Positions 5,060 through 48,567 of a stretch of 64,000 bases of DNA are shown in pieces; the stretch's first letter is position 1; the number at the start of each line of letters is the position of its first letter. Source of the stretch: Mytilus californianus (lineage: Eukaryota); assembly GCF_021869535.1 (NCBI RefSeq), contig NW_026262666.1, positions 1,736,001 through 1,800,000 of the forward strand. Direction: 5' to 3'. The position numbers and the translations under genes were made by a program. The notes under the pieces are model-generated. The model saw only the letters and a program-made list of their open reading frames with translations, was not told where the DNA came from and made no database searches.

Positions 5060-6968
5060 ATTTATTTATTTAGAAACTACCCCTTTACAACGGGGGACAC
5101 TCATATGTCATTTTCAGAGCTAAAAATTGGTACATTATAAAATAAGACATCTTACATAAGAAAAATACACATTATGTACAATATTAAAATATGAACTAAA
5201 CTAAGAGTTACGTAAACATATTACATAAACAAAAAACATTTAAAGTTTAGGTTCCAAAACCAAAGATCTCTGAGTGTGCATTTCGCTCAACATTTTCTTA
5301 CTTAAACTGTCCAAAGTATTACTGATGTAAGGATCAATCTGATAAAAATAATCACCAATAAGTATTTGTATTTTATCGTAGGACGATAACTCTGTGAAGC
5401 AGAGGCCCGGGAAAGTAAAACTTAGATATTCATTTATATCAGAACACTCTAGAAGGCAATGTTCAATAGACTCGTCAGAATTACATAAACATATTTGGCA
5501 AGTGTGACTCTCGCTAAGATTCATCCTATACAAGACTTGGTTCACAGGTAAACAATTTGTACGTGTTAACAATTTTAGTCTTGCAGACTTAAAGTCCAGC
5601 AAGTTCGACAGATAGGGTTGCCTTCCTTGTGCAAAATTAAATTTGGAGAAAATATCTAGACTGCTTTTATCATTTATTTCTTGATATTCCCTTCTACGAA
5701 CAAACCTTCTAAGAAACTGTTTAAATATATTAGAGTTAACATTCGAGTTGTAAAAGTGATCCAGACCAACCATATTAAATAAATTTATCATATGTTGCGG
5801 ATAATTCCACCCCCTTTGAAACGTTAGGGACTTAAGTTCTTCAAATACAAGTCGACACAATGTACGTGTGCCAAGACCTTGAATCCTAGCAAAATAAGAC
5901 ACCCTTTGTCTATCAAGAAAAACGTTTATAGGCTCCCATCCCAAGTCTAGGAAAAGGGCAGCTTTTGGGATATTCATCTTAGTATTAAAAATCAGTTTCG
6001 CCGTTTTATATTGCCATGTTTCAAGTATTTGTTGACTTGAAGCAGATGACGGTAGCCATACGGCATATCCGTGTGCTAGAGACGGTCGGATGACCGAGTT
6101 CCAGAGAGCATCCCTAAAAGATATGCGATTAAAAGATCCGTGCATGCTCATTAAGTAGCTAAGTCATATAATTCAGTTTGCGCTCGAAAATATCTTTTAA
6201 GAAATGATTGATATGGTAAGCAAAGGTCAAAGAGCGGGTAAAATAAACTCCAAGATATTTATATTCATTAGTCTCGTCCAAATGCTCGTTTCCTAGGTAC
6301 CATTTCTTAGTTTTATCTCAGCGTTTGCCTACTATCATAATCTTAGATTTGTTTGGGTTAAACTTTAAATTCCACTTTGATGCAAATTTTGCTGTTATAT
6401 CTAGCAGACACTGCAGTTCCTTCTTTGACTTCCCGATAAGAACCATATCATCAGCAAACATCAAACAGTTCAAAATTTGTGAAGAGAGCTCGACGCCCAA
6501 ATTACTGGTTTCAAGCATACCTATGAGGTCATTCATTAAAACAGAAAAAAATGTTGGAGACAAAACACAGCCTTGTTTCAAGCCAAGTTCTTGGTCGAAG
6601 AAACCTGTTTCACTAGCATCAATCAAGACTTTATTTGATACATTGCTATAAAGAGATTTGAGCAATTTTCAGCACTTGCCTTGAATGCCATTTTTCCACA
6701 ATTATAGATAGAAAAGGCCATCTCGCCAGACTCTATCAAAAGCCTTGGACAGGTCTAGGAAAGCGAGAAACGTTTTATGTTTTTTTAGCTTTACGAATAG
6801 AACAAATACCTTGCAGTGTAAAAATATGGTCCTCGGTTCTTCTGTTTTTTCGAAATGCTCCCTGGACCTCGCCTAAAATATTATTTTCTTCCAAATGGGA
6901 CATTACAGATTCTTCCAAAATTTTTGCATATACTTTTTAAACATTAGAAGTAAGCGTGATACCTCTGT
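5060..6968 (-). mobile_element. 5'-truncated, degraded non-LTR retrotransposon (LINE) RT and C-terminal region
   Basis: RT motifs YRGITLTS, FLDLSKAFDRVW, LKQGCVLSP, LMFADD; C-terminal CQIC...HCLLEC; frameshifts near 6150-6320 and 6670-6800; (TAAA)n tail near 5060. Confidence 0.9.
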
Positions 6969-8420: not shown

Positions 8421-9263
8421 ATCTAGTCTTTATGAAATAATCAGTATTTAGGTCTTCAGACAGTGATCATATTGATTAAAATAAACAATTTGAAAATATA
8501 CATACTTATATATTCTATTGCACTATTGTTGAGAATTACGACAATCAGTCATGATAGTTTAACTGCACTGTCATTTCTATAAATCAGTTTACACATTATT
8601 ACATATACATTTACACAACAATTTTATCAGAACAAACAATATGAGATACTGTTTATCAGGTTATTTTCACGTCGAGATTTGTTTGCGTTAAGGTCGTTGA
8701 AGGGACAAATACATCGTCGTCGTGTTCATTCTACGCCTTTTATAGTTTTGTTATATATATTTGAATGGGCAGTGCAATATTGCGCAGAGCTACTTTTGCG
8801 TAAAAATGTCTACTGCAAACGTAGCGTTTAATAGACATATGAACAAATGAGTAGATTCACGAAGCTTTAAAAGTGGCCTTGAGAATTGGATGTTTTTTTT
8901 AATCTGGCCTAAATACCAGAGATACAAAATATCTTCTGTAGTACATGTTGTGCCTGTATGAAGTAAGGCTATCTAGATCTTGTGTTTATCGTTGGTTTTT
9001 GTCTTTCTTGGTCTCTGGTGGATAAGTGTCTCATTTACAATCCTACCACATTATTTATTTTCTTGTTTGTTTTTCTTTTCGTCGTCTTTCTTTTTTGCGA
9101 TGGCGTTAGCACTCGCGTAACAACAATAGACGAAAACGACCACTACCAACCGACGCCTCTAAATAACAAGGAGATGTAGTATGATTGACAATGAGAAAAT
9201 ATCCAAAAGAGTCAAAATAATGGCATGCATGTAAGCAACTATAATGTGTCATCGTAGGGCCTT

Positions 9264-10510
9264 TGTGAACGTGGAATAGTTCGTTTTGGTTTGTTTGTTG
9301 GTATATGGCTATAATAGCTGGAATGAAAAACCAATTCTTTGTAAAATAATAGATCTTTATTAATTGCTGGTCAATGTTCAAGTGCATACATGATAAACAA
9401 TACATAATAAGTTCATACATATATAATTGAAATAACATTAATTATTTAAACTGAATGCATAATAATATAAAGATGGAACATATATATTCGCATTGTAAAA
9501 CAATAAAGATAAAATGGGGGAGCTAACTAGCTCAATTAAATTAATGTGCTGATGCCAAATAATGTCAACATGAGTGAGACAAGGGCCTCTTTTTGAATTT
9601 TGATAAGTGTTGCCATGGTAACCAAATAATTTACTTTAGAACTAAGTTAAATTAATGAAGTGTAAACAGAACATTATTAATTTAAACACAAGAGTATAAA
9701 ACATTATACTTATATACAACAATGAAATCTGAACAATAAAAATGTATATGGCTACAAGGAGAGAATTGCGCTTTATTTTCATTTCTAGTTCTGACTTTAA
9801 AACAACCATTTATACATGATTCGAATGCATACTTAAACTGTCTTAATTACTAAATCAATATACACAACTCTGGTTGTTACCTTTGAGCCTTCATAGTGAA
9901 TAAAATGCACATTCTTAATAATTTTGCATTTGACGCAGTGTTTATTTTATTCTTAAAAGTGGAGATAACTCTGTTAAATACAGCTTAATATCGCTCTGTT
10001 TTTCAACATAAAAAATGGAATGAAACGTACCATAACTACTTGCGCTTTATGATCAGATTCAAATTAACTACTAAATAACTCAATAAAAATACCGACGCTA
10101 AAGAATATTTACACGATAAAGCAAATGACTAAAATAAGTAAGTCTTTTCTTTCAAATACTTAAACATTATGAAATATCAAAATATGTGACAAAGTCGCGT
10201 TATTTAAACATTGCAATTATCTAATTATTAAAAAGAAGGATAAAAAATGCTAAATTCAATAATAGGAAACATAAAGACTTTGTCTCTAAAACATGACTAT
10301 TTACATTAGAAAATTCTGTAATTGTAAAAATACTTTTAACTTCAAATAAGCTGTTACGACTGCAACTATACCCTTTTTAGTTTCTAATATCTTAACATCT
10401 AGAGAATTATCATTTAAAATATCAATGCATAAAACATGAAAATATTCATTTAAAAATATCAACTTATAAAACTTAAAGTTACACTCACCTGGAATGAAAA
10501 ACCAATTCTT
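9264..10510 (-). repeat. Non-coding 3'-terminal extension beyond the shared LTR segment, absent from the 5' end
   Basis: Lies inside the TSD and ends in ...CGTTCACA; a 67-bp direct repeat at 9318-9384 and 10489-10555 includes the last 45 bp of the LTR. Confidence 0.8.
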
Positions 10511-11024
10511 TGGAAAATAATAGATCTTTATTAATTGCTGGTCAATGTTCAAGTGACCACAATTTCATAAAATACAAATTTTGTTTCATTCCCAGGTGAG
10601 GCCCAATTAGGTAAAATAATTATATACACAAAGGAAAATATCTCATAAACCCTGTCACTGGCCCCATGTCACCTAAGAGCTAAAATCTATGATAGCGTGG
10701 TCTTAATCCGGACATGCTAATCCAACATATAGTCAAAGGTTACATAATATTTGCTATCGCTAATAGATAATATAATAAACTCTAATTTATAGCTTTTGTA
10801 AATCTTTTGTAGAAAAATGACAATTTATAGCTATTTTATTTCTTTGTCTAATTCTGGTATTTTATATAATCTCTTTAAAAATTAACTTATAAATTCGGGT
10901 GACATGACGACAGTGAAATTCTTTTTATTTATAAAATAAATTAAAACTCATTTCTATTAAAACTATAGTAAAAATAAGTAAAAGATCTATAAGAAAAAGT
11001 GATGGTGCATTTTTCCTTATCACA
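10511..11024 (-). repeat. 3' LTR, 514-bp segment shared with the 5' LTR
   Basis: Identical to 19405-19918 except two positions by eye (g/t at 10513, t/c near 10715); begins TGTGATAAG on the minus strand; AATAAA at 10527-10532. Confidence 0.95.
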
Positions 11025-11040
11025 AATATCCCCGTCATTA
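11025..11040 (-). other. Polypurine-tract-like plus-strand primer site
   Basis: AATGACGGGGATATT immediately precedes the TG start of the 3' LTR on the minus strand. Confidence 0.6.
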
Positions 11041-11395
11041 AAGATTCTTTGTCCTCAAAGAACATAAGAAATAAAGTAAAAAAATCCAAATATCTAAAAG
11101 TTTCCCTCTGGGATCAAGTCAACATACACTTCTGAAATACATATTTGCAACAAGTCACATGAATACAATAGGATATTGTGCCCTTTTTCAGCATACACGC
11201 ATACAATTCAAATATTAATGTTTTATGTCACACAATGTAAAATTTGAATAAATAGGTATATCTGTGAAAGAATTGTATCGTACCAGTGTTCATATTGAGG
11301 CAATTCACATTACTATGGCAATCAATAAACAACCTTGAAAAAATTGTTGTGTACAACTAAAATGTATGATGTGAATGGTGATTTAAAAATGTTTC

Positions 11396-13810
11396 TCAAC
11401 ATTTTTGCTTTAATGGATTGACTGTAAACGTGTCAGGTACCTTGATTTGTTGTTTTGTGTGAACATTTACTATGCTTAAGCCTGACATTTCAACATGTAG
11501 TTTTTTATAAAAAGTACCAGATATTCTCATGTTTGTTATGTTATTTGGTGTTGCAATATCCCAATCTGATGGACATAATGGTAAATTGACAACTGGTATT
11601 GTCAAGCATGTTAAACCATTGCTGATTTCAAGTATGATTTTAGTGTGATGTCTTGTGCATACTTGTTTATATAAATAATGCAATACTCCAACAAATGAGA
11701 TAATTGTGATTGCTGCCAACACAATTGATGGCCACTGATTTAACTGTGGTGATAATAATGAATCATAATTTTGAGTTGTTGATATAGGTGATTGCATGTA
11801 ATGAAATGTTGGTGGTGTTTGTGGTGTCACAAATGCAGCTGATGATGGAGCTTTTTGTAACAGTATAAGTGCTGTTGTCAAGGCACGAACTTTGTTAAAT
11901 AGTGCAATGCAAGCAATCGTCAAAAGTATTGATAACACAAGAGATATTAGCGAGATCATCTCATTTGTGTTTGGCCAAGAATCGTCGATATCAATTTCAC
12001 CATCAAGTAATGGTTCTGACAATGAGGTAAATATTTTTCTGTCTGCTTTTGCTGCTTTTGCTATTCTTTTCAGGCTTAAGTGTAAATTATTGTCTTGTGC
12101 AATGACTGAGTTAAATGTATGGTTATAAAAATGAAGGTTGGGAAGTGTAATGTCTGCTGGGTCTGTAAAAGTTGTGTCACCTAATATCGAATTATAAGTT
12201 TCTGATGAGAAAAAGTGTTGAATAAGTGCTAAATTTACTGGATGTACTATAGTCACTGTATTTGTACTGTTATCGCACAATCCTTTTTTTGCAGGTATAA
12301 ATAACGAATCTGTTTTTACAGAACAAAGACATGGAACATGTATAATACAAAAGGAACATCCTTTTTCAATTTTATGACCTGATGGACAGTCAAAAGCAAG
12401 TGTTTTGGTTTTGTATATAAGTAAACTTGTGTCAGTTATTTCTTTGACTGCTGGCTGTATGATATTTGTAAGGAATCGGAAATTGCAATTTGAATGTACG
12501 CTTTCTTTGTCATTGAACAGTAGTGCAAAGGAACAACTTGGTGAAACAGATGAAAGTAAAGGAAAAGTTTTTGTGCAGTACAGTGTATCTATTCCTGAAC
12601 ATGTTTTTACAAATTCATCTGATAATTCTGCATACTGTCTGTTATCAGATGTGATTACTAAGTACTGTGGGAGATCTAATAATTGAGTTGCGTGATTGCT
12701 GGTTGTATTTATAGGTACAGGGTATGAGTTTATTTTGTATAGAGTGAGTGGATTCACAAATGTAGTAATTGGAAATTTGATGCTAATGAATAAATTTTTG
12801 TGATGTCTAGTATATAAAATGTTAGCTTGTGAATAATAATATGATGGGTTCACATTATTTAAGTAAAAACCTTTGAATTTGTCATTTAAGATAGATTGAA
12901 TATGCTGAATTGTACGTTTGAGATTTTGTGGTGAAATTAAAAATGGTGATAATTTGCCTTTAACTAACTCATGGACAGCTATTTTGAGTTCTTCTAGATA
13001 CTTATTAATTTCAGCTGTTTCATTCATTTGTTTGAGTAAAAATTTTGACAATTTGATGCTTAGTTTCTCAAATTGTGAGATGAATTTTGCAGTTTCTTTA
13101 GTGATATTTTGAATACCTTCATAATTGTTTTTTATACCAACTATGATATTATCAAATCTCTTATTTGTTTTTGACATATATGATGATAACAATTTATCGT
13201 GATGTGTAATATCTTTTGCAAATTGATTATTTCTTCTGATTAAAATGTTTACATGTTTTGCTAGTCTATTTACATCCTCAGTAGTTGCTGTGCCAAATAA
13301 AGATTTGGAAATTGAACCAATAAAGTCAAATAGTCCACGCTTTAGTCTAGATTCTGTATTGGATTTGTCTTCAATATCAATATGTGGAATAAGTTTATGA
13401 ATAACATCGACTGTGTGATTCACATTTGATGATACTTGAGTTCTAATTGCAGTAAGTTGTGATAAGACTTGGTTTAAAATGTAACAATGTTGATGTGTAA
13501 TATCACATTGTTCAAAGTGATCATCAGTTTGTTTGCTAGGAAGGGGAATCTTGAAAGTGTGAAGCCAATTTTCACGACCCGAAAGTAAATTTGGTTGTCT
13601 CTCAAACACTACTCCATAATTGATACGCTGTATCTGGTGCACCTTGTCAGCTGACACATATATCATTATCCACAACCATATAAAAATCCTGGCAAGACTT
13701 ATAACTCCTATAGAAAACAAAGAAAAAGGAAATTGATAGAATGTGAAATGTTTGTTGGGTAAGAGGTTGCATGCCTCTTTTAGCACTAAGTAACATGAGC
13801 ATAGGCTCAT
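11396..13810 (-). CDS. env: Envelope glycoprotein, class I fusion protein of baculovirus-F/errantivirus-Env type; true start uncertain, probably spliced
   Basis: About 804 aa from ATG 13810; signal peptide ending VSA/DK; furin site RLKR (13337-13348) followed by fusion peptide GLFDFIGSISKSLFGTATTEDV; heptad region; Cys-rich ectodomain with many NxS/T; C-terminal TM segments. Confidence 0.9.
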   Translation of the reverse strand: MSLCSCYLVLKEACNLLPNKHFTFYQFPFSLFSIGVISLARIFIWLWIMIYVSADKVHQIQRINYGVVFERQPNLLSGRENWLHTFKIPLPSKQTDDHFEQCDITHQHCYILNQVLSQLTAIRTQVSSNVNHTVDVIHKLIPHIDIEDKSNTESRLKRGLFDFIGSISKSLFGTATTEDVNRLAKHVNILIRRNNQFAKDITHHDKLLSSYMSKTNKRFDNIIVGIKNNYEGIQNITKETAKFISQFEKLSIKLSKFLLKQMNETAEINKYLEELKIAVHELVKGKLSPFLISPQNLKRTIQHIQSILNDKFKGFYLNNVNPSYYYSQANILYTRHHKNLFISIKFPITTFVNPLTLYKINSYPVPINTTSNHATQLLDLPQYLVITSDNRQYAELSDEFVKTCSGIDTLYCTKTFPLLSSVSPSCSFALLFNDKESVHSNCNFRFLTNIIQPAVKEITDTSLLIYKTKTLAFDCPSGHKIEKGCSFCIIHVPCLCSVKTDSLFIPAKKGLCDNSTNTVTIVHPVNLALIQHFFSSETYNSILGDTTFTDPADITLPNLHFYNHTFNSVIAQDNNLHLSLKRIAKAAKADRKIFTSLSEPLLDGEIDIDDSWPNTNEMISLISLVLSILLTIACIALFNKVRALTTALILLQKAPSSAAFVTPQTPPTFHYMQSPISTTQNYDSLLSPQLNQWPSIVLAAITIISFVGVLHYLYKQVCTRHHTKIILEISNGLTCLTIPVVNLPLCPSDWDIATPNNITNMRISGTFYKKLHVEMSGLSIVNVHTKQQIKVPDTFTVNPLKQKC

Positions 13811-14034
13811 AATTTTTAACAAACATTACACAGAAAGCAAAGAAAGAATTTTATAGTAAGAGTGTTCAGTTATGCCAACATCCTCATATAATGTTTCACA
13901 GATAGATAGGTGACCAATGTATGAAGTTTTAGATATATATGTAAAATTGTAAAAACCACTACCGTAAAAGTTATATATATATATGTAATAATCTATCTCA
14001 TGAAAGTCAATTGTAAGAAAAATTTTCAAAATTG

Positions 14035-17000
14035 CTATACAAAACATGGATTCCTTTGTGGGCGTTTGCGTCTTCTCCCCTGTTGTGTTTTCGTAGCATG
14101 GAAATTATTGATAATGTCATCACTTAAATCTTTGGCAAGTTGCCATGTAAGTCCTCTGTAACCTTTCCACTTTATTAAATATTGTTTTTGACCGTCAATT
14201 GTCCTTGACCTAATAATTCTTTCTATTGGGTACTCCTGGTCATCATTTTGATCCTTTGGATCTGCATCATTGTCATCATCATCAACAATAGGTGCTTGTT
14301 GTGCCTCCTGTTGAGGTTGTACTTGTGGCTGAACTGGCATTGGTAAATCTGGACGAGGCACATCCATGGGAGGTGCGTTTAAATTTTGTCTGTGATCAGG
14401 TGGGTGGTATAGTTTTAGCCTGTTTGCATTGATCATACTTTTGAGTAATTTATGGTCGCTACATCTGCGCAATTTGTATGTGTAATTCGAACCTTTGTCA
14501 ACAATGTAGAATGGTCCATCTTGTTTCTTGTAAAGTTTGGAAGAATATCCAACTGGTACTTTTGGAGTAAATACTAAAACTTGGTCGTTTACTTCAAACT
14601 TTGGCAATTCTGTACGTTTGTCATAATTTGTTTTCTGCTTTTGTTGAGCATGGTTTAAGTTTTCTGTAGCTATTGCCTTAGCTATTTTCAAGTTGTCCAA
14701 TATATTATCAATATGTGTTTTCAGGTTTTTGTTAAGATCTTCCCTTGGGATAAGGTTGACATCAAAAGGAAGGTTCATGTCTTTGCTAAAAACAAGATAG
14801 AATGGAGAGTACTCTGAAGAAGCAGATGGAGTCATGCGAAAAGCCATTAGAATACCAGGCAGTAGTTCTGGCCAATTTGACTGTTGTTCATTAATGACAG
14901 TTCTAATGCATTGTATGATGGTTTTGTTGGTACGCTCAGCAATTGAATTTGTTTGAGGATGGTAAGAGCTTGTGAAGGAATGTTTGACATTAAAAATGTG
15001 GTTAACTGCTGCAACAAGCTTGCTCATGAATCCTTGACCACGATCTGTACAGATGGAAACTGGGCTTCCAAATCTTGTAAATATCTCCTTGTGTAATACA
15101 GAGGCAATTTCTGCTGCACTTTCTGACTTAACTGGAAAACATTCTACCCATTTACTGAAGGAATCGACTATGATCAAGATGAAGCGATGTCCTTCGCTTG
15201 TCTCTCTCTTAAAAGGACCAATAAAGTCCATGTGCCATCGAGCAAATGTATCTGTAATTGGCATTGGTGTCATTGGAACTCTTTTGGAATGTGGTGGATA
15301 TTTTGCTTTTTGACATGGTTCACAACCTCTAATGTATTCTGTAACTACTTGGTACATGCGTGGAAAATAGTACTTTTCTTGAATAGACTGGTATGTCCGA
15401 TCAAAACCAAAGTGTCCGTGATCATGGTATGCCTTCATTAGATCATTTCTAAGTGTACGTGGCAATGCAAGTTGTTTAATGAACCTTTTGATTTTTCTTA
15501 AACCTTTTTGTCTTGGTTGGTACTGATGATACAGGACATCATCTTGCATGATATATTGGCTTGCCTCTAGGACAACCTTTTGTGCTATTTTCTTGTCATC
15601 TGGTAGTGTGTTGTTTTTAACATATTCATATATGAGACTAAAATCTGGACATTCACTCTGAAGTTTGCCTATTTCTATGGGTATGATATCAGATGTTGTT
15701 AATTCTGCAACTAAAGGTGATTTGCTTTTAGGCTGATCAGAATAGACAAAAGTAACTTCAAGAAAAGGATTTTCAGATTGGTCAATAGTATGAATTGAAG
15801 GAATGACATCTTCAGGTTCAGAAATATCAGATTCTTTTGTGACTGGATATTCACGTCTAGAAAGACAATCAGCAACAACATTTGTTTTACCTTGTCTGTA
15901 TAAAATTTCCATGTCATAACCTTGTAACAAAACTGACCATCTGGCCAAGCGACCAGTAGATTGTTTGATGTTGTTCAGAAATTTTAGAGCATTGTGATCT
16001 GTATACACTTTAAAATGTTTGTATGCTAGGTAAACATGATATGTTTTGACACCTTCCAATATAGCTAGACATTCATGCTCACTAGCTGACCATTTCCTCT
16101 CTGCTTCCGTTAAACTTCGACCACCATAAGCTATAACTTTCTCTTGGCCTTCAGAATCTAATTGAGCAAGAAAATAACCAATAGCTGTGCCGCTGGCATC
16201 AGTGGTAAGAATAAAGTCTTTCGACATGTCAGGATAAGCAAGAATAGGAGATGAAATCAGAGTCTTTTTGAGTTTATCAAAAGCAACTTGACAATCCTCT
16301 GTCCATTCAAAAGGTACATTGTCCTTAGTCAGATTATGCAATGGACCTGCAATGTGGCTATACCCTTGAACAAATTTTCTGTAATAGTTACAGAGACCTA
16401 AGAAACTTCTGACCTGTTTTTCAGTTTTAGGCACAGGAAAAGATTCTACAGTTTCAATTTTAGATTTGTCAACTTCAACACCTTTCTTAGAAACTTTATG
16501 GCCTAGATAAATGACTTCTTTTCGTGCAAACTGACATTTGCTTGGTTTAAGTGTGAGATTTGCAGCTTTCAATCTGTCAAAAACAAGCTGAAGATGTTTT
16601 AAATGTTCTTCAAATGTTCTGCTAAAGACAAGTATGTCATCTACATAGACTAGAGCAATCTGGTAATTGAGACGATGAAGAACCTGAGTCAAAAGATGTT
16701 GAAAAGAAGATGGTGCTGCTGATAAACCAAAAGGAAGCCTTTTCCACTGATAAACTCCACTAGGAGTGACAAAAGCAGATTTATGAGCCGTGGCTGGGTC
16801 TAACTGACATTGCCAATATCCGGACAAAAGATCTAAAGTTGTGAATATCTGCGCTTGTGAGCGCCCTAAGGAGTCAAGAACATCCTCAATGCGAGGCAAA
16901 GGAAAAAACTTGGGACGTGACACCTTATTAAGGGAGCGAAAATCACAACAGAACCTTAGTTCTCCCGATTTCTTTTTGCACATGACTACAGGTGCAGCCC

Positions 17001-18105
17001 ATTCACTGGTGGACTCTTCTATGATACCGTGTTCAAGCATTTTGTCAATTTGTTTGTTCATTTCTTCTAGAACTGGTGGAGATTGTCTGTAAAACCTTTT
17101 TCGTATTGGTGGCGCATCACCAGTGTCAATTGTATGTTTGTATAGATTTGTATTTCCTAGTTCACTAAGATCTTTGGCAAAAACTCGTCTATTTTTAGAA
17201 AGAAATGCTTGGAGAATAGTTTTTTGATCTTCAGACAGATCTGAGTCACTAAAATCAAAGTCTAAGATGTCACACTGATCATCAGATTTAGAATTCTGAG
17301 TTTTCTTATCAACTTGAGTGTCTGTTAAAGAAATGATAGATTTAGAGTCAACTGCAGAAACTGAAGCAACAACAAAGTTAGCTGGCAAATGAATAGTTTT
17401 TTCTGTAGGATTCATCACTCTCATGAAAGAATTGCCAGTGTCATCTAGTTGAACAATGGACTTTGCCCCAGCTAATGATTGACTTGGTAATGTGTGCAAG
17501 GGTTCTAAAAGAGCAGTTTGGTTTCTTAAATTGGACACTTTGACTGGAATGTCAACTTGATGTAACCCTTTGATGTGAATGTGTCTCTTTGTGCGAGCTA
17601 ATCCATTGTTTAACTCTACAGAATGGACAAGTTTTTCATCAGTGTCTGGCTCTGGGATAAACAGAGTGTTAGAGGGACAATCAATGATTGCTCCATTTTC
17701 AGTTAGAAAATCAAATCCTAAAATCATACTTTGTTGCATTTTGGAAAAGACATGAAAACGATAGACAAAAGAAATATTTCCTATAGTAAAAGGCAAAAGG
17801 ATAAGTCCTAAAATGGGATGGTGTTCACCCCCAACACCTACAGCATCTTGAACTCTTGTTCGCTGAATTTGTTTAAGATCAAAGTTTAAAGATTTGAGTA
17901 AATTTACTGAGCAGCAGCTAATAGCTGCTCCTGTGTCAACCAAACTTTTTACGTTGTTACCTTTTATTGTAACGTGAACTGTATTGCCATTTAATTTTGA
18001 CAACTGTGCAATTTCTGGTAATTTTAAATTTTCATTTTTATGTGTTTCTTTTCTGTTTTTGAAATTTCTGTTTTGGTGTTGTCTCTCTTGCCTTTGTTTT
18101 GTGTG
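14035..18105 (-). CDS. pol: Pol polyprotein: protease, RT, RNase H, integrase, GPY/F, chromodomain
   Basis: DTGA protease, YVDD RT, TDASG RNase H, HDHGH..CEPC zinc finger, DDE core (WHMDFIG, TDRG, ERTN), GPFYI, C-terminal EYPIERII..YLIKWKGY..TWQ. Frame is open back to the gag stop with no Met before the protease active site. Confidence 0.97.
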   Translation of the reverse strand, partial: HTKQRQERQHQNRNFKNRKETHKNENLKLPEIAQLSKLNGNTVHVTIKGNNVKSLVDTGAAISCCSVNLLKSLNFDLKQIQRTRVQDAVGVGGEHHPILGLILLPFTIGNISFVYRFHVFSKMQQSMILGFDFLTENGAIIDCPSNTLFIPEPDTDEKLVHSVELNNGLARTKRHIHIKGLHQVDIPVKVSNLRNQTALLEPLHTLPSQSLAGAKSIVQLDDTGNSFMRVMNPTEKTIHLPANFVVASVSAVDSKSIISLTDTQVDKKTQNSKSDDQCDILDFDFSDSDLSEDQKTILQAFLSKNRRVFAKDLSELGNTNLYKHTIDTGDAPPIRKRFYRQSPPVLEEMNKQIDKMLEHGIIEESTSEWAAPVVMCKKKSGELRFCCDFRSLNKVSRPKFFPLPRIEDVLDSLGRSQAQIFTTLDLLSGYWQCQLDPATAHKSAFVTPSGVYQWKRLPFGLSAAPSSFQHLLTQVLHRLNYQIALVYVDDILVFSRTFEEHLKHLQLVFDRLKAANLTLKPSKCQFARKEVIYLGHKVSKKGVEVDKSKIETVESFPVPKTEKQVRSFLGLCNYYRKFVQGYSHIAGPLHNLTKDNVPFEWTEDCQVAFDKLKKTLISSPILAYPDMSKDFILTTDASGTAIGYFLAQLDSEGQEKVIAYGGRSLTEAERKWSASEHECLAILEGVKTYHVYLAYKHFKVYTDHNALKFLNNIKQSTGRLARWSVLLQGYDMEILYRQGKTNVVADCLSRREYPVTKESDISEPEDVIPSIHTIDQSENPFLEVTFVYSDQPKSKSPLVAELTTSDIIPIEIGKLQSECPDFSLIYEYVKNNTLPDDKKIAQKVVLEASQYIMQDDVLYHQYQPRQKGLRKIKRFIKQLALPRTLRNDLMKAYHDHGHFGFDRTYQSIQEKYYFPRMYQVVTEYIRGCEPCQKAKYPPHSKRVPMTPMPITDTFARWHMDFIGPFKRETSEGHRFILIIVDSFSKWVECFPVKSESAAEIASVLHKEIFTRFGSPVSICTDRGQGFMSKLVAAVNHIFNVKHSFTSSYHPQTNSIAERTNKTIIQCIRTVINEQQSNWPELLPGILMAFRMTPSASSEYSPFYLVFSKDMNLPFDVNLIPREDLNKNLKTHIDNILDNLKIAKAIATENLNHAQQKQKTNYDKRTELPKFEVNDQVLVFTPKVPVGYSSKLYKKQDGPFYIVDKGSNYTYKLRRCSDHKLLKSMINANRLKLYHPPDHRQNLNAPPMDVPRPDLPMPVQPQVQPQQEAQQAPIVDDDDNDADPKDQNDDQEYPIERIIRSRTIDGQKQYLIKWKGYRGLTWQLAKDLSDDIINNFHATKTQQGRRRKRPQRNPCFV

Positions 18106-19356
18106 TCAATAATCTACCCTATAATTAGATTGTCTTGGTTGCCAGTTTTGTGAATTAGATTGTTGTCTTGGTTGCCAGTTTTGTGAATTTGCCTTTCGCT
18201 CATCAAATTCTTTCTTATCACATACCTCTTTAAAATGACCAAACTTGTGACAATAAAAACATTCAACATTGTATGCTGGGCATTTTCTCCTATCAAATAC
18301 ATGTGACTTACCACAAAACTTGCATTTGGTCAGTGACTGCTGCCTTGATCCTCTATAATTTTGACTGTAATTTGGCTTGTTTTGATCATGATGAGGTACA
18401 CCCACTGCCATCACTTGTTCTTTAAAAACTGATCTAATACCCTCTACTAAAGAAGAACATAAATCATTAATTGAATGTACATTGTTTACACTTTCTACAT
18501 TTAATTTTTGAACATTTTGTGTAGTTATGTTTGTATTGTTCGTGTTAACATCACTAGCTTTACATTCTGCTACACTAGTTGCAAGGTAAATTGCTTCTCT
18601 TAATTCATTTATTGTTTTGGGATCTTTCCCTACCACAAACGGTTTGATATCTGGGTTAAGCCCATTTTTACATAAACCCACAATTGTCTGCTCACTAATG
18701 TTCTGTGCACCACTTGCTAGGTTTTGCACTCTAGTTAAGTACTGTATCCCGGTCTCATGCGGATGTTGTTTAAGGCGGTACAACTCATTGTTTGTGTTAT
18801 GGTGTTTAAATCTGTCCAGAAAAGCAGCTTTCAAATTTGTCAGATCATCACGTGTTTCTGTAGGTAAGGAATGATACCATGTTGAGGCTTGTCCCTCCAC
18901 ATGAAATGAAAATGCAGCTAAAGCTGCCTCATTCTGATAATTTTGTAGTTTAATGTAATTTTCAAACATGGTCCACCAAATGGCAGGAACCTGGCTTGTT
19001 TCATCATGAAAATGAGCTAAATTTATATGTGACATTACTCGTTTTGTATTATTTGTCAAACCTATTGGAATAATTTGCACTATCTGTTGTTCAGCTTCTG
19101 GTTCTATTTCTATTTCTTCTTCTGCTTGTTCTGTGTCTTGCAAATTTATCTGGTTATTTGCTACTGGTTCCTGTTCAGTTATGTTGACAATCTCTGTTTG
19201 ATCGTCACCTGGTTGTTGTTCGGTTATGTTTACCAGAATTTCCTCTAGATCTGTGGAGTATATGTCCTCTGCGACTTGTGCTTTGGCCCTTGTGTTATAA
19301 TTGGACGGTGTTGCCCCTGTCGTTGACTTGGCACCAGCTGTGTTTCTGTATGGCAT
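18106..19356 (-). CDS. gag: Gag (416 aa) with two C-terminal zinc knuckles
   Basis: Retrotransposon capsid-like region (WWTMFENY, ASTWYHSL, LKAAFLDRF, GLNPDIKPFV); CKFCGKSH..C and CFYCHKFGHFKEVC knuckles; ATG 48 nt downstream of the 5' LTR. Confidence 0.93.
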   Translation of the reverse strand: MPYRNTAGAKSTTGATPSNYNTRAKAQVAEDIYSTDLEEILVNITEQQPGDDQTEIVNITEQEPVANNQINLQDTEQAEEEIEIEPEAEQQIVQIIPIGLTNNTKRVMSHINLAHFHDETSQVPAIWWTMFENYIKLQNYQNEAALAAFSFHVEGQASTWYHSLPTETRDDLTNLKAAFLDRFKHHNTNNELYRLKQHPHETGIQYLTRVQNLASGAQNISEQTIVGLCKNGLNPDIKPFVVGKDPKTINELREAIYLATSVAECKASDVNTNNTNITTQNVQKLNVESVNNVHSINDLCSSLVEGIRSVFKEQVMAVGVPHHDQNKPNYSQNYRGSRQQSLTKCKFCGKSHVFDRRKCPAYNVECFYCHKFGHFKEVCDKKEFDERKANSQNWQPRQQSNSQNWQPRQSNYRVDY

Positions 19357-19391
19357 GTAGACAGTAGAGCGAGGTAACAGGAAAGAGTCAG

Positions 19392-19401
19392 TCCTCTACC
19401 A
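19392..19401 (-). other. Putative primer-binding site
   Basis: TGGTAGAGGA starts 3 nt after the 5' LTR end; the TGG start is typical of a PBS complementary to tRNA CCA. Confidence 0.6.
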
Positions 19402-19404
19402 ATT

Positions 19405-19918
19405 TGTAAAATAATAGATCTTTATTAATTGCTGGTCAATGTTCAAGTGACCACAATTTCATAAAATACAAATTTTGTTTCATTCCCAGGTGAGGCCCAA
19501 TTAGGTAAAATAATTATATACACAAAGGAAAATATCTCATAAACCCTGTCACTGGCCCCATGTCACCTAAGAGCTAAAATCTATGATAGCGTGGTCTTAA
19601 TCCGGACACGCTAATCCAACATATAGTCAAAGGTTACATAATATTTGCTATCGCTAATAGATAATATAATAAACTCTAATTTATAGCTTTTGTAAATCTT
19701 TTGTAGAAAAATGACAATTTATAGCTATTTTATTTCTTTGTCTAATTCTGGTATTTTATATAATCTCTTTAAAAATTAACTTATAAATTCGGGTGACATG
19801 ACGACAGTGAAATTCTTTTTATTTATAAAATAAATTAAAACTCATTTCTATTAAAACTATAGTAAAAATAAGTAAAAGATCTATAAGAAAAAGTGATGGT
19901 GCATTTTTCCTTATCACA
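19405..19918 (-). repeat. 5' LTR (514 bp)
   Basis: TG...CA (TGTGATAAG...TTTTACA on the minus strand); 512/514 identical to 10511-11024. Confidence 0.95.
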
Positions 19919-21719
19919 CCTTCAACAAGAAAAGTATTTATAAGTTATGCAATTTGTTTTAAAGTAACAATTAAAAATCTGATAACAACCGAGAAAATGT
20001 GTGCTACACAGAAATTCAAACCTTAATCATACATTTACAACTTTATAAATCAGTGGTTTTTAAAACGCATAAATTCCGACAAATTCCAGGTCAAATCATA
20101 TTGTGTTTTCATATGTAAGCAATCAAAATCCACAACTGAAATTTCGCCAATCATTACACAATATAAATAAAAAGAGGTGTGGGACGAGCTTCAAATTTAC
20201 GTGAATGAAAAAACCAACCTAAGAATATGCTAAAAACGACAGTAGTAATCGAATGTCAACAAGTTGTCTTATACCTCCGTTATATCATTCGATTCGTTCA
20301 TTAGTTAATGTAATTGGATTAGCTGACGTATCGCGGTACAATATGGCTGCTCTGTTAAAAAATACCACAAAGTTAACATATCAATAGTTTTGATATAACT
20401 AAAGATACAAAATATCTTTTGTAGTACATGTTGTGCCGGTATCAAGTAAGGCTATCTAGATCTTGTGTTTATCGTTAGTTTTTGTCTTTCTTGGTCTCTG
20501 GTGGATAAGTGTCTCATTGAAAATCCTACCACATTTAATATTGATTTTGTTATCAGTAAATTAAAAGCAAACTAAACATTATTGTTATAAACATATGCAC
20601 TTTCATGGATCCTGTATCTTGGCATTGCACAAAAGTCATGTTTTTCGCTGACTGTTTATGGCGTCTTTACACAAAATCCATGGGATGTTGGATGTGTACT
20701 GATTGATAAATTAGTCTTAGATACATGAATTGTTTTATTAGTTGTTATTGGCTTTGAACTAGCTGTCATTAAGTGCGAGTACACTCAGATCTGTACTTAG
20801 TGTCTTTTTGTTGTTTGGATGTACAAGATTCCACCCACGTCCAATCTGTGTTTTTCTTTTATGTACTTCTATCTATCCATCTGATGAGTTAAGCCTTTTT
20901 CAACTGATTTTTATAGTTCGTTGTTATGCTGTACTGTTAAATCACTGTCCCAGGTGAAAGGAAGGGTTGGGATCTCGCTAACATATTTAACTTCCGACAC
21001 ATTCTGTATGTATGTGCCTGTCCCAAGTCAGGAGCCTGTAATTCAGTATTTGTCGTTTGTTGCTGTGTTACATTTTTTTTGTACACTTATTAGGCCGTTA
21101 GTTTTCTCGTTTGAATTGTTTTACATTTATGATTTCGGGGCCTTTTATAGCTGACTATGCGGTATCGGCTTCGCTCATTGTTGAAGGTCGTACGGTGACC
21201 TATAGCTGTTGATTTCTGTGTCATTTGGTCTCTCGTGGAGAGTTGTCTCATTAGCAACCATACCACATCTTCCTTTTTTATATTCACAAAGAAAGATAAA
21301 CAGCAACGATCAACGCAATATACAGATAACATGACTTAATACAGGCACAAAATGTACTAAAGTTAAAACCAAGTTTACGTGTATACTTTTCGTTTCCTTG
21401 AATTCTTTATTTGTAGAATTTTATTAATTTAAAAAAATTAAGAACTGAATAAAGAAAAATAACAATTTTGTTTTATAAATTTGGTGCGTGTGTTTTTCAT
21501 TATTTATTTTTACCAGGAATGCTAAAACCAAAAACTTTGAAAAACAAGAATGTGTAAGGGTTCAAATACTTGAGGAGCTGAATATCTACATACATATAGT
21601 AACTTATTTATTTCGTTTTATTCAATTTCACATACGTATACTGGAACGTTATAATGAAATGTTAATAGAAACCAAAATGTTTTTCCTAGTACTTACTTCT
21701 TTTTTAAGTTTTATTTTCT

Positions 21720-22480
21720 TGTTTATCTAACTTTGTCTTTATTTTCTACTGTAAACTTGTTATTTCTACTAACACAACATCTATTTATCTTTCGAAATTT
21801 ATCACAGTTTGCTTTCGGGTTTGAATAATTACTTCTAGTTTGTCACTTATTTCGTTTTTATTCTTCCTAATCTCCTTTGCTTTTGTGGATTCCTTCACAC
21901 AGATACAGCTTTATCTATCGTAACAACGTGTTCAATTTTCTGTGGTGTACTGTAACACAATCGGCACAACATTGTTGTGAGAGACTTGCAGTATATTTCG
22001 ATAGTCTTATCTAGATGTTCATCGCAAGAAATAGAAGCAAACATATTTGGAGCATACATTTATATCTGTAATGACTACTAACTTGTGGTTCCGAGTACTT
22101 TTGAATCTTTCATGAATGACTTCACATGGTCCACTATACGCTTCGACACAAACAGTGCACCATGAAACTGCTTTGTGAGAGATGTTCTAATTGCTACAAG
22201 CATCGCAAACTTTCTTTGCTTTCTTCATAGCCCTCCTGTCAATCAAATGTTTTTAAAGTCAGTTTCTAGACCACACCTCAGGTTTCTCCGTACTGTATCC
22301 ACACGATACAATGCCTCCGCATACTGGGCACTCGAATCCCTCTAGTTTTTTTTTTCGCCTTTTACAGTTGAAACAAAAAAGACATGTATACAGGTCTCAC
22401 AGAGTGGATGCAGACACGGTACATAATTTGGCAGTTTACAAGTTCCAAAACAAATAGTCAAGGTTAATTAAGCAGCAAAT
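21720..22480 (-). pseudogene. Heavily decayed TRIM-like (RING/B-box/coiled-coil) copy
   Basis: Nucleotide similarity to 47780-48510; remnants such as VPCLHPLCETC, DRRAMKKA, CDEHLDKTIEIYCK, HVVTIDKAV broken by stops and frameshifts. Confidence 0.85.
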
Positions 22481-27630: not shown

Positions 27631-29530
27631 TTAATTAATTTCACATATGTATGCTTCACTTCTAGATCCATGAAATGTCACAAGAAACTTGTTAGTATTT
27701 TGTTTAAAACGCATTACCCATGGCCTTTCAGTCATATCTTCGTCTATGTCTGATAAAGCAATGGTACGGGCGAGTTGTCCGTCAGGTGTCACCTGATGGA
27801 TGTTTTTAGCATAATGTTCTACTATGTATATGTTGCCGTCGCGATCAATATTCTGGTGAAACGGTGAGCTCAAGTTACTCTTGCAGTCAAAATCTGTTCC
27901 GACAAATGATTCAAATCTTATTGAATGTGTATTCCTAAAAATGTTCTTATTTTCCCTATGACTACCTACAAATGTCGTGTGGTACTCCTCTTATTTAGCA
28001 CCATATTCAGTGTTGGACAAGGAAATGATACTACTATGTGCAATGATTTCTTCATGAATGAACATGCACATTCCGAACATTCCAACATTTATATTGACTG
28101 TTTTGATTGTTATCAAAGATTTAACGTTAATTATAAAAGTCTTTCCATAAGAACGGCATTGATAAATGGACACGGCTACTGTATGATCATTCACCTTAAT
28201 AATATCGGTTGGACGTTCATTAATTTGAAATTCTAATGTGTCTATTTGTTTTCCAGTATTATCGTGGTAGGCTATTCTGTTTTCATTGTACTCCGTTATG
28301 ATGATGTCGTCTTTAAAGAATATGCCACTGGTGTAAGCACCTCTAACATCAATCGTAAAAATCACGTGTATCTTCCCTAAAAGGGAGGGTTTGTTTTCTT
28401 TCAAATGCAAGCGACCAAAGCACATAGTGTCTGAAATGATATTCATTGTTTCGAACTTTATTGATATGTCTCTTATACCTTGTAAAACTGTGGACAAGTC
28501 ATTTTTAAAGTGTGGCATTTTACTTGAAATATCCTCCATTTTGACCAGGCAATGAATTTCAGAACCTTGGGACAAACAGGCCCTGAAGATATACTTCCAA
28601 TAATCAAAGGCACTCTTCAAGGCCACTAATTCACTAATCTCTTCATTCAGTCTTAGAATATTAGTTTTTCTTACACTTTTTACTTCTTCTTTGATTTTCA
28701 GTTCAAGTTCATCTAAACGGTCATTCAATGTTTGTCGCATGTTACCGATTTCTGTCAAAACAACATCTATATCTTTTTCGAAATTTGTTGTACTTTGTTT
28801 CCTATTGTCAATAATTACTTCCAACTTGTTACTTGTTTCTTTTAATTCCATCATTAGTTCCTGTGCTTTTATAGATTTTTTTTATACCAGTTACAGCTTT
28901 ATCTATGGTAACCAAGTGTTCACATTTTCTATGATGTACAGTAGCACAAACGGTACAACATGGTTTGGAGTGATCTTTGCAGTATGTTTCGATTGTCTTG
29001 TCTGGATGTTCATCGCAAGCAACAAATCCAAAGACATTTCCAATAAGCGTATCTTCCGTTATATCTTGAATCAAAACTATCTTGTGATTTCTCGCCATTT
29101 TATATTTTGTATGATTGACTTCACAAGAATCGCAATAGGCCTCTTCACAAATCGTGCACCATGAGATTGCTTTTTTGGAAATGTTTTCACTGCTACAAAC
29201 ATCACAAAATTTCTCATCCTGTTTCATTGTTCTCCTGTCAATCAATGAATTAATAAAATGATTTGCAGGCAAAGTTTTTACCCATGTATCAGGTTTTGCG
29301 ATGATGTCTCCAACCAGAACAAGGCGACTACATAATGGGCACTTGAATCCTTCTGGTTTTTCTTCCTTTACTGTTGAAACAACATATGTACTTAAACAGC
29401 TCTCACAAAACGTGTGTAGGCACGGTAAAGTCTTTGACTGTTTAAATGTTTCAAGGCAAATAGTACACGTCAATAAATCGGTTAAATCTTCTTTTAACGT
29501 TTCTTCCTTTACGTTAGCTAAAGTCGCCAT
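27631..29530 (-). pseudogene. TRIM-like gene copy with one frameshift and one premature stop
   Basis: ORFs 28829-29530, 27991-28854 and 27631-27873 align collinearly with the intact 642-aa paralog; +1 in a T8 run at 28876-28883; in-frame TAA at 27991-27993. Confidence 0.92.
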
Positions 29531-30168
29531 TTTGTCTTTACTGTTAAAGTTCCTTGTTGAAATATAAATAACGAGATAAATATAGAATGCATACTATTTT
29601 TAGATGATTGAGTGGGATTCTATGAAATATTCTGGTTGTTATCTTGTTTATATACGAACAAAGAAATCGACGTGCGCTATATATGGACATTTGTATTTGT
29701 TAGGTTGGTAAATATTTGTTTTTACAGAAAAAAGAATTGATTAATTGTTGGTTGTTTACGTCCAGTGGCAACATAAAAAAGAAAGTTACCCTTCCAATCA
29801 TATACCAAGAGTCCACAAAAGGAATGTTAATTGATAAAGACTAAACGTAGTGTTCTTGTAATGAACTTATCAACATAAATTCTTTACTTTTTGAATTAGT
29901 CGGATATTTATTTGTAGTATCACTTGTTAATAATCACGTACAAGGCAAGTAGACAAATTTTCGTTTTTTTTTTTTTTTGTTTTTTTTTAATCTATCAAAA
30001 TGAAACATGCGAAATTACATAATACAGTTTTTTGCACAATGTATGAAAATTACGTTACACTTTTAAGATTGATAAAGTTTTCAGGATACAAGGTAATATA
30101 TTACAATTGATTTGGTTAATTGAATGCTGCTTTGTGCCAATAACCACTTCTGAAATTGTTTTTTAACT

Positions 30169-46638: not shown

Positions 46639-48567
46639 TTATTCAATTTCACATACTAACACTGGACCAGCCGATGATGGAAACGTTAAAAGAAACCGGT
46701 TAGTATTTCGTTTAAAGCGCATCACCCAGGGATATTTAGCTGTATTGTAGATATCTGATACAGGTATGATACGGATAAGTTGTCCAGTAGGATTTAGCTG
46801 ATGGATGTTGTTTGAACTATGTCCTACAACGTATATGTTCCCATCTTGATCAATTTCCTGATTATACGGAAAGGATAATTTACTATGAGTATACGGAAAA
46901 TCTTTTCCGTCAGCTAATTGAACCTTAATAGAATTGGTGTTATTCATATAAACGTATTCATTTTTCTTGTAACAAGTAACAAATCGTGTGTCTACACCTG
47001 CTGCTAATTCTTTTATTTTAGCACCCGTTTCAGCGTTTAGCCAATAAATGGTATTATTGTTAGCAGTTATGTACTCATTTTCTATCAAACACAATCCCCA
47101 TACAGCAGCTTTAATATTTAATGTCTTTGCTACAGTAAACGGTTTAACGTTAATTATAAAAATCTTGCTTGCATCAGAAGACACGGCTACAGTTTGATCA
47201 TTCACTTTAGTGACATCAGACGGGGTATTCGGAATGTTCAATTCATCTGTTTGTTTTCCGGTATTGTCGTGATAAACGATCCTTTTCTTATCATAATCGG
47301 TTATAATGATATCGTCGTTGAAGAATATTCCACTGACAAAAGAGCCTTTAATCTCAATTGTAAACAACACTTTTATCTTTCCAGTATGAAAGTCTATTGT
47401 CTTTAATCCAGGAAGAGACGGTCTATGGTCATTGAACTGCAGGCGACCGAAACAAGCAGTGTCCGAAATAACGTCCGTAGCTTCAAACTTAATATGAATG
47501 TCCTTAATACCCTGTATAGCTTTAGACAAATCATTTTCGATGTCCGGCATTTTCCTGGAAATCTCCTCCATTTTGACCAAACATTGTATTTCAGATCCTT
47601 GTGATATACAAGCCTCAAATATATTTTTCCACTGATCGTACGTACTCTTCAATGATAATAAGTCAGCAGACTCTTCACTTAATCGTAGAACATTGTTTTT
47701 CCTTGTACTATTTACTTCGTCTCTTATCTTGTTCTCGAGTTCATCTAGTTTTTTGTTTAATTTTTCACGAACATTCCCAATTTCTACTAAAACAGCATCT
47801 GTTTCTCCTTCGAAATTTGTCGTATTTTGTTTACGAGTATTAATAACTGCTTCTAATTTTCTAACTGTTTCTTTCAACTTCGTCAGAAGTTCCTTTGCTT
47901 TTGTAGATTCCTTGACACCGGTTACAGCTTTATCTATAGTAATGACGTGTTCACATTTTCTATGGTGTACAGTAGCACAAACGGTACAACATGGCTTGGA
48001 GTGATCCTTGCAGTATATTTCTATTGTTTTGTCTGGATGGTCATCGCAAGCAACAGAAGCAAAAATATTTGGAGCATTCATTTCTGCATTTATATCTGTA
48101 ATAGCTAATAAGTTGTGGTTCCGTGTAATTTTGAATCTTTTATGACTTACTTCACATGGACCACAATAAGCTTCATCACAAACAGTGCACCATGATATGG
48201 CTTTTTGAGAGACGTTTTCGTTGCTACACGCATCGCAAAGTTTCTCCGCTTTCTTCATAGCTCTCCGGTCAATCATTGAATTGACAAAATGATTTCCAGG
48301 TAGGTTTCTAGCCCACGTGTCGGGTTTCACCATACTGTCGCTAGACGATACAAGACGACGACATACTGGGCACTTAAATCCTTCTGGTTTTTCTTCCTTC
48401 ACGGTTGAAACAATATATGTATTTATACATGATTCACAGAACGTATGTAGACAAGGTAAATACTTTGGCTGTTTAAATGTTTCAAGACAAATAGAACACG
48501 TCAATAAATCGCCAAAATCTTCGTTGATAGATTCTTCCTTAAAGTTTGCGTCTGCTGAAGTCGCCAT
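46639..48567 (-). CDS. Intronless TRIM-like E3 ubiquitin ligase (RING, B-box1, B-box2, coiled coil, NHL-like beta-propeller), 642 aa
   Basis: C3HC4 RING CSICLETF..LPCLHTFCESC..CPVC; B-box CDAC..WCTVCDEAYCGPC..H; B-box CDDH..YCKDH..CCTVC..HHRKC; coiled coil; propeller repeats ending DQDGNIYVVG..SNNIHQL; open from ATG 48567. Confidence 0.95.
   Translation of the reverse strand: MATSADANFKEESINEDFGDLLTCSICLETFKQPKYLPCLHTFCESCINTYIVSTVKEEKPEGFKCPVCRRLVSSSDSMVKPDTWARNLPGNHFVNSMIDRRAMKKAEKLCDACSNENVSQKAISWCTVCDEAYCGPCEVSHKRFKITRNHNLLAITDINAEMNAPNIFASVACDDHPDKTIEIYCKDHSKPCCTVCATVHHRKCEHVITIDKAVTGVKESTKAKELLTKLKETVRKLEAVINTRKQNTTNFEGETDAVLVEIGNVREKLNKKLDELENKIRDEVNSTRKNNVLRLSEESADLLSLKSTYDQWKNIFEACISQGSEIQCLVKMEEISRKMPDIENDLSKAIQGIKDIHIKFEATDVISDTACFGRLQFNDHRPSLPGLKTIDFHTGKIKVLFTIEIKGSFVSGIFFNDDIIITDYDKKRIVYHDNTGKQTDELNIPNTPSDVTKVNDQTVAVSSDASKIFIINVKPFTVAKTLNIKAAVWGLCLIENEYITANNNTIYWLNAETGAKIKELAAGVDTRFVTCYKKNEYVYMNNTNSIKVQLADGKDFPYTHSKLSFPYNQEIDQDGNIYVVGHSSNNIHQLNPTGQLIRIIPVSDIYNTAKYPWVMRFKRNTNRFLLTFPSSAGPVLVCEIE

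Follow-up and report, generated by a model that had tools for sequence, protein, structure and literature searches.

The window analysed here, a 64,000-nucleotide stretch of the Mytilus californianus genome, contains a retroelement with an envelope gene and a chromodomain at the end of its integrase. The locus raises the question of whether this domain reads methylated histones and whether it directs new copies into heterochromatin, as a sequence-only reading of the DNA had proposed. The element is a young, env-carrying Ty3/gypsy retrotransposon with gag, pol and an F-type env (Table 1). It has the errantivirus layout of LTR-gag-pol-env-LTR, the order protease, reverse transcriptase (RT), RNase H and integrase within Pol, and an env of the F type. 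The two LTRs share 514 bases at 99.6% identity, and therefore the insertion is young. The in-frame stop at the gag-pol boundary is also present in all six other loci examined, which points to the production of Pol by read-through. Among named proteins, those of Mytilus edulis and M. coruscus come closest over the region (51–55%), which points to a mussel host. The env of the window contains what we take to be the RxKR site in front of a fusion-peptide-like stretch. The env frame (end at about 11415–11396) stops approximately 25 residues before those of sibling copies and closes with other residues, a pattern that a late frameshift would produce.

Table 1. Features of the env-carrying element in the window. 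Positions are those of the window.
Feature	Position	Strand	Description and basis
Whole element with target-site duplication	9260..19922	minus	4-base duplication at 19922-19919 and 9263-9260; element proper 9264-19918, 10.7 kb
5' LTR	19405..19918	minus	lacks the U5 end present in other copies
Putative primer-binding site	~19402-19390	minus	after the 5' LTR
gag	18106..19395	minus	Retrotrans_gag, Ty3 capsid; in frame with pol, one TGA between; Pfam
pol	14035..18105	minus	1356 codons: protease, RT, RNase H, integrase zinc finger and core, GPY/F-SH3 (GPF 14517), chromodomain; open frame, Pfam
Linker	14236..14388	minus	P/Q/D-rich, from GPY/F module to chromodomain; sequence; 8-37% identity across families
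Chromodomain, Pol C-terminus	14095..14235	minus	three strands and helix; Pfam Chromo, HP1-alpha alignment, predicted fold
Basic tail after helix	14038..14094	minus	T-x-x-G, then RRRKR at 14076-14062; clade-typical; sequence
env	11396..13825	minus	F type, 809 codons stop to stop; Baculo_F E 3.9e-19, residues 64-643
3' LTR	9264..11024	minus	long form (~1.76 kb), internal 67-base direct repeat

The C-terminal domain of Pol is almost certainly a genuine group I chromodomain, the HP1-type class defined by three cage aromatics (PMC6317226, PMC3350952). The domain peptide lies at the end of the 1356-codon Pol frame, from E1291 (14235–14233) to A1337 (14097–14095). The Pfam Chromo profile (PF00385), a search proposed by the sequence-only reading, gave a significant match to residues 1294–1336 of the whole Pol (29.8 bits against a cut-off of 25.1, E 5.6e-07), and the last 121 residues alone scored 34 bits (E 2.8e-08). 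HP1-alpha was the best phmmer match of the last 69 residues among PDB sequences (E 1.6e-08). The alignment places Y1292 (14232–14230), W1313 (14169–14167) and Y1316 (14160–14158) on the cage aromatics of HP1-alpha; the HP1 cage positions are Y24, W45 and Y48 (PMC3350952). The complete Y/W/Y cage that had been read from the sequence is thus confirmed by the profile, the alignment and the predicted fold. The GPY/F module (GPF at residue 1197, 14517) and the P/Q/D-rich linker precede the domain as described earlier, and the basic RRRKR tail is present, starting at 14076, just beyond the range of the domain (14095–14235). Compared with HP1, the loop that follows the third aromatic lacks two residues. 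The TWE motif of the third strand, typical though not universal in group I and described as extremely conserved among retrotransposon chromodomains (PMC3350952), reads TWQ in the window copy and in older copies of the family. A chance match or an assembly artefact was ruled out, since the same protein is encoded by other copies on other contigs.

The fold was modelled from a 40-row alignment (pLDDT 87.5), with predicted strands at positions 7–16, 19–26 and 32–36 and a helix at 42–53. This model was used instead of one calculated from a single sequence, which had a pLDDT of 67 and no Foldseek match at E ≤0.001, though the matches listed were chromodomains. Foldseek with the alignment-based model returned chromodomains throughout (best E 8.2e-04), and the predicted fold could be superimposed on HP1 (1kna) with an rmsd of 1.2 Å over 50 columns. 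VIA-align ranked Oxpecker highest (Z 8.4, rmsd 1.9 Å over 57 residues), followed by Rhino (7.9) and SUV39H1 (7.8). The 45-residue core of the domain contains six acidic and eight basic residues and is net basic. In H3K9me3 readers, the peptide is described as lined by acidic residues (PMC13068663).

The pairing of env with a chromodomain, considered unusual by the sequence-only reading, has been published. Chary and Hayashi (eLife 2026, PMC13524379) reported it in a clade of cnidarian, mollusc and annelid elements. By our count, 28 of the 139 representatives in Supplementary file 4 of that paper are chromodomain-positive: 12 of 19 molluscs (9 of 14 bivalves), all five cnidarians, 8 of 26 annelids, and one hemichordate, one nemertean and one rotifer. 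Co-occurrence is thus common in described mollusc elements, which by the earlier reading's own account speaks against its claim. No insect row of the file is positive, in agreement with the expectation that insect errantiviruses lack a chromodomain. The positive molluscs include two elements of the mytilid Mytilisepta virgata. The element list of the same paper names a Mytilus species as the source of five env-F elements and Mytilisepta virgata as the source of three; none of the five from Mytilus has a row in its chromodomain table. The chromodomain-containing errantivirus clade is placed basal to the known chromoviruses and sister to the chromodomain-less errantiviruses (PMC13524379). An env-plus-chromodomain element is already known as a kind, and because the pairing is in print for molluscs, the finding as stated adds little. 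The words "aromatic", "heterochromatin", "H3K9" and "target site" do not occur in the main text of PMC13524379, and therefore the state of the cage and targeting are not treated there.

The window element, which has both env and a chromodomain in a mollusc host, resembles these ancient errantiviruses in its gag-pol-env order, F-type env, chromodomain C-terminal to the integrase, long LTRs, few near-identical copies and bivalve host, a likeness by the features described in PMC13524379. With the group I chromoviruses MAGGY, Tcn1 and Tf1/Sushi it has in common an integrase followed by GPY/F and a three-aromatic chromodomain (PMC6317226, PMC3350952). In contrast to them, it has env, TWQ, the short loop and a clade-specific basic tail, and a sequence proxy showed no heterochromatin bias in the flanks of its insertions. 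The chromodomains of HP1/CBX5, Rhino, Oxpecker and SUV39H1 have the same fold and cage register, whereas the window domain is 22–39% identical to them, less acidic, fused to an integrase and without a chromoshadow domain. The insect errantiviruses gypsy, ZAM and Idefix have a baculovirus-F-related env and the three-gene layout, like the window element. They also make a four-base target duplication. They lack a chromodomain and form a separate pol clade (PMC13524379), and, unlike in them, gag and pol of the window element are in frame across one stop.

A search of the genome with the last 121 residues of Pol gave at least 80 matches (150 of 398 candidates scored). Twenty long-frame matches were fetched, and together with the window copy they form at least eight families and an unassigned locus (L049). 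The eight families are 49–77% identical to one another in RT-RNase H; the RT tree takes in the families of this genome and homologues only. Five of them carry env: the window family, L034–L037, L038/L040, L041–L043 and L047. The env of L038 and L041 was called from tblastn to the window env (E below 1e-130), and their env frames matched no Pfam family at E 0.001. Neither an env match nor a long frame was found behind pol in L048, L039/L046/L050 and L044/L045. The full cage is present in five of the eight families, three with env and two without, and in these families F, Y and W alone replace one another at its positions. The third aromatic is missing from two env families. A coupled unit of env and chromodomain was rejected, since env and full cage are found together, each without the other, and both missing. 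The chromodomain of the window family is only 16–42% identical to those of the other families; Pfam did not list the L047 domain at E 0.001 and scored the L038 domain below the cut-off. Of all chromodomains seen, that of the env-less family L044/L045 is the most canonical (Pfam 52 bits, full-length loop, TWE), and L044 encodes gag and pol in a single frame of 1659 codons.

A wider protein library contained 13,757 hits at E 0.001, and the best 150 were examined. These relatives are proteins without genomic context, so that the counts cover the state of the domain and not env. A chromodomain was detected with our own profile in 121 of the best 150. Among the best 150 of 13,757, the full cage was present in 26 of the 71 scorable relatives (50 left out for gaps) and, after realignment, in 18 of 101 (20 left out). 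Because most relatives scored lack the full cage, the clade can do without it. A short loop is usual in the clade (42 of 71), and the residue after TW is E in 45 of 71 and Q in 6 of 71, again in the best 150 of 13,757. In the same set, the T of the tail is conserved in 88 of 121 relatives, the G in 90 of 121 and the basic patch in 85 of 101. The basic tail is thus better conserved than the cage.

Selection was assessed as in-frame pN/pS against two older, broken copies of the window family. The ratio was 0.26 (45 codons, p 0.005) and 0.15 (41 codons, p 9e-08) in the chromodomain, 0.20 and 0.20 in the integrase, and 0.15 and 0.40 in the linker. The chromodomain is under purifying selection, no more so than the rest of Pol. 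The signal is not specific to the chromodomain, because the ratio of the linker is also below 1. The four other long-frame or near-full copies of the family that were read encode an identical protein.

At the nine sites of the window family with both ends seen, the four-base duplications were exact at six, had one mismatch at two and were missing at one, and they had no common target motif. Site-specific insertion into one host repeat was suspected, as many copies had a common 1.2-kb "flank". It was rejected because the 1.2-kb stretch is part of the long LTR, and the true flanks and four-base duplications differ.

Two forms of the LTR, one long and one short, occur in the family. In the long form, a 1.17-kb AT-rich stretch has a splice-donor-like GTGAGT at its start and a pyrimidine run and CAG at its end. 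A 67-base direct repeat containing AATAAA brackets the stretch (10555–10489 and 9384–9318 in the window). The two repeats carry the same copy-specific variants (L059; L060 and L063), which suggests that one repeat serves as template for the other in each cycle. In one reading, the transcript would be spliced at its 5' end and polyadenylated at its 3' end in the second repeat, and strand transfer would rebuild the second repeat from the first. The short LTRs (both ends of L032, L061 and L065) would then be by-products; recombination between the 67-base repeats would yield the same short form. The junction of the U5-less 5' LTR in the window (19405–19403) falls within a short microhomology. In another copy of the family (L033/L053/L058, G000:C154 42.61–42.73 Mb), the start of the 5' LTR is located about 100 kb from the rest, and one four-base duplication is common to both ends. 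The split may stem from the assembly or from a large insertion within the LTR.

To compare insertion sites, 5-kb flanks were measured against 38 background 10-kb stretches at round-number places on large contigs. The measures were interspersed-repeat cover (BLAST to other background stretches), tandem-repeat cover, CpG observed/expected ratio and GC content. This proxy, applied to few sites, detects only high-copy repeats and is blind to histone marks, selection after insertion confounds it, and the p values, from many tests, carry no correction. The 12 sites of the window family, a subset of the places behind 42 LTR matches, had a median repeat cover of 0.168 versus 0.216 in the background (p 0.22), tandem cover of 0.009 versus 0.057 (p 0.028), a CpG ratio of 0.862 versus 0.799 (p 0.047) and equal GC. 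A CpG ratio under 0.6 was found at none of the 12 sites and in 8 of the 38 background stretches (p 0.17). The 21 sites of full-cage families had lower repeat cover (median 0.166 versus 0.216, p 0.028) and lower tandem cover (p 0.018) than the background, with p 0.065 for CpG. Tandem cover exceeded 10% at 1 of the 21 sites and in 14 of the 38 background stretches (p 0.011). Eight sites of other families did not differ from the background (p 0.25 or more); the incomplete-cage group includes L049, the cage of which was unread, and the flanks L157, L158 and L165 still held family sequence. Full-cage insertions thus give no support for repeat-rich targeting and at most a weak hint of the opposite.

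Nine 5-kb pieces of the window had a mean cover of 0.17 interspersed and 0.02 tandem repeat, below the 0.25 and 0.15 of the 38 background stretches, and the sequence-only description of a repeat-rich region is not confirmed. Nor is there support for its proposal that the position of the element speaks for heterochromatin targeting: the window is not repeat-rich for this genome, it holds TRIM genes, and the flanks of family insertions are poorer in tandem repeat than the background. The TRIM-like genes, with RING and B-box, form a cluster on the minus strand (46639–48600, 27991–29593 and about 21700–22460); one is a single frame of 653 codons, one is split over two frames, and one is detectable by DNA similarity only. 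Between 24372 and 27415 is a large inverted repeat, foldback- or MITE-like, with two arms of about 1.4 kb that are 94% alike and tandem subunits of 21–22 bases at both ends. A fragment at 5240–6163 on the minus strand, with a zf-RVT match (E 1.1e-05) below the cut-off, is probably the end of a LINE-type element.

Based on the domain and its distribution, a role in integration can be proposed, to which we give an even chance: the chromodomain would tether the integration complex to nucleosomes, the cage reading methyl-lysine and the basic tail gripping DNA, and serve the efficiency of integration with a mild bias at most. Pol would arise by translation through the gag stop, and its cleavage would free the integrase with the chromodomain still attached through the variable linker. 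The chromodomain would then hold the integration complex on nucleosomes. Methyl-lysine binding by the window chromodomain is plausible, and the cage would bind H3K9me2/3 or H3K27me3, probably more weakly than HP1 does, because of TWQ in place of TWE, the shorter loop and the excess of basic over acidic core residues. The basic tail would grip DNA; a precedent is nucleic-acid binding by SUV39H1, Clr4 and Chp1, whose chromodomains use basic residues of the last helix (PMC6222470). The element would gain efficiency of integration, with site choice biased mildly at most and no strict targeting of satellite heterochromatin. In MAGGY, the group I chromodomain recognises H3K9me2/3, and transposition falls when this domain is lost (PMC3350952, citing Gao 2008 and Nakayashiki 2005). 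The retention of the cage in five of eight divergent families, while the linker keeps only 8–37% identity, argues for the tether, and so do purifying selection on the domain, a tail better conserved than the cage, insertion flanks not enriched in repeats and the mixing of env and cage among families. Against it stand the lack of a full cage in most relatives scored, the altered TWE motif and a selection signal that is also present in the linker. Env would act in cell entry and the chromodomain in integration, as separate steps that are not linked.

The same fold and tail might instead work independently of histone marks, by binding DNA or RNA, as a nuclear-import signal or by tuning the integrase as in Tf1, with the aromatics kept for folding or by descent; we regard this as possible but somewhat unlikely. 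Among the best 150 of 13,757 relatives, the T, G and basic patch of the tail are retained far more often than the full cage, and young families with open frames and near-identical LTRs do without the third aromatic (L041–L043, L039, L046), both of which fit a mark-independent module, as does the net basic core. Removal of the chromodomain makes the integrase of fission-yeast Tf1 more active and less specific (PMC3350952). However, the three aromatics are kept in five of eight divergent families with swaps only among F, Y and W, as a cation-pi pocket would require, and the folds closest to the predicted model are those of H3K9me3 readers. It is very improbable that the domain is vestigial, with no remaining function. 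The change from TWE to TWQ, the shortened loop and the low identity to the chromodomains of other families would be expected of a decaying domain, but the selection test within the family (pN/pS 0.15–0.26) largely refutes decay, four other copies encode the identical protein, the short loop is normal for the clade, and the fold is predicted with confidence.

Strict targeting of the MAGGY type, the idea of the sequence-only reading, would have the cage read H3K9me2/3 and send new copies into constitutive heterochromatin. The complete group I cage and the MAGGY precedent (PMC3350952) speak for it, and so might the absence of CpG-depleted sites in the window family, which could reflect avoidance of methylated gene bodies. 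Since assemblies under-represent heterochromatin, the flank comparison is biased against this outcome. We nevertheless consider it unlikely, as the flanks of the 21 full-cage insertions are poorer in interspersed and tandem repeat (uncorrected) and the window copy is located near TRIM genes. In a more speculative variant, to our minds distinctly unlikely, the caged domain of these animal errantiviruses would make new copies avoid satellite heterochromatin and methylated gene bodies and guide them to a different methyl mark; H3K27me3 across tandem clusters of immune genes, like the TRIM genes of the window, would be an example.

In the literature, mostly that outside subscription papers, we found no study testing the chromodomain of an animal env element for histone binding or site choice. 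Cage-dependent site choice is cheap to test, because caged and uncaged families occur in one genome. HIV borrows the host protein LEDGF for its choice of chromatin, and MLV borrows host BET proteins. If the cage reads a histone mark, the element would carry a built-in chromatin reader where vertebrate retroviruses borrow proteins of the host. The caged and uncaged families of this mussel, with and without env, would then be a natural experiment in integration guided by histone marks without a host tether protein.
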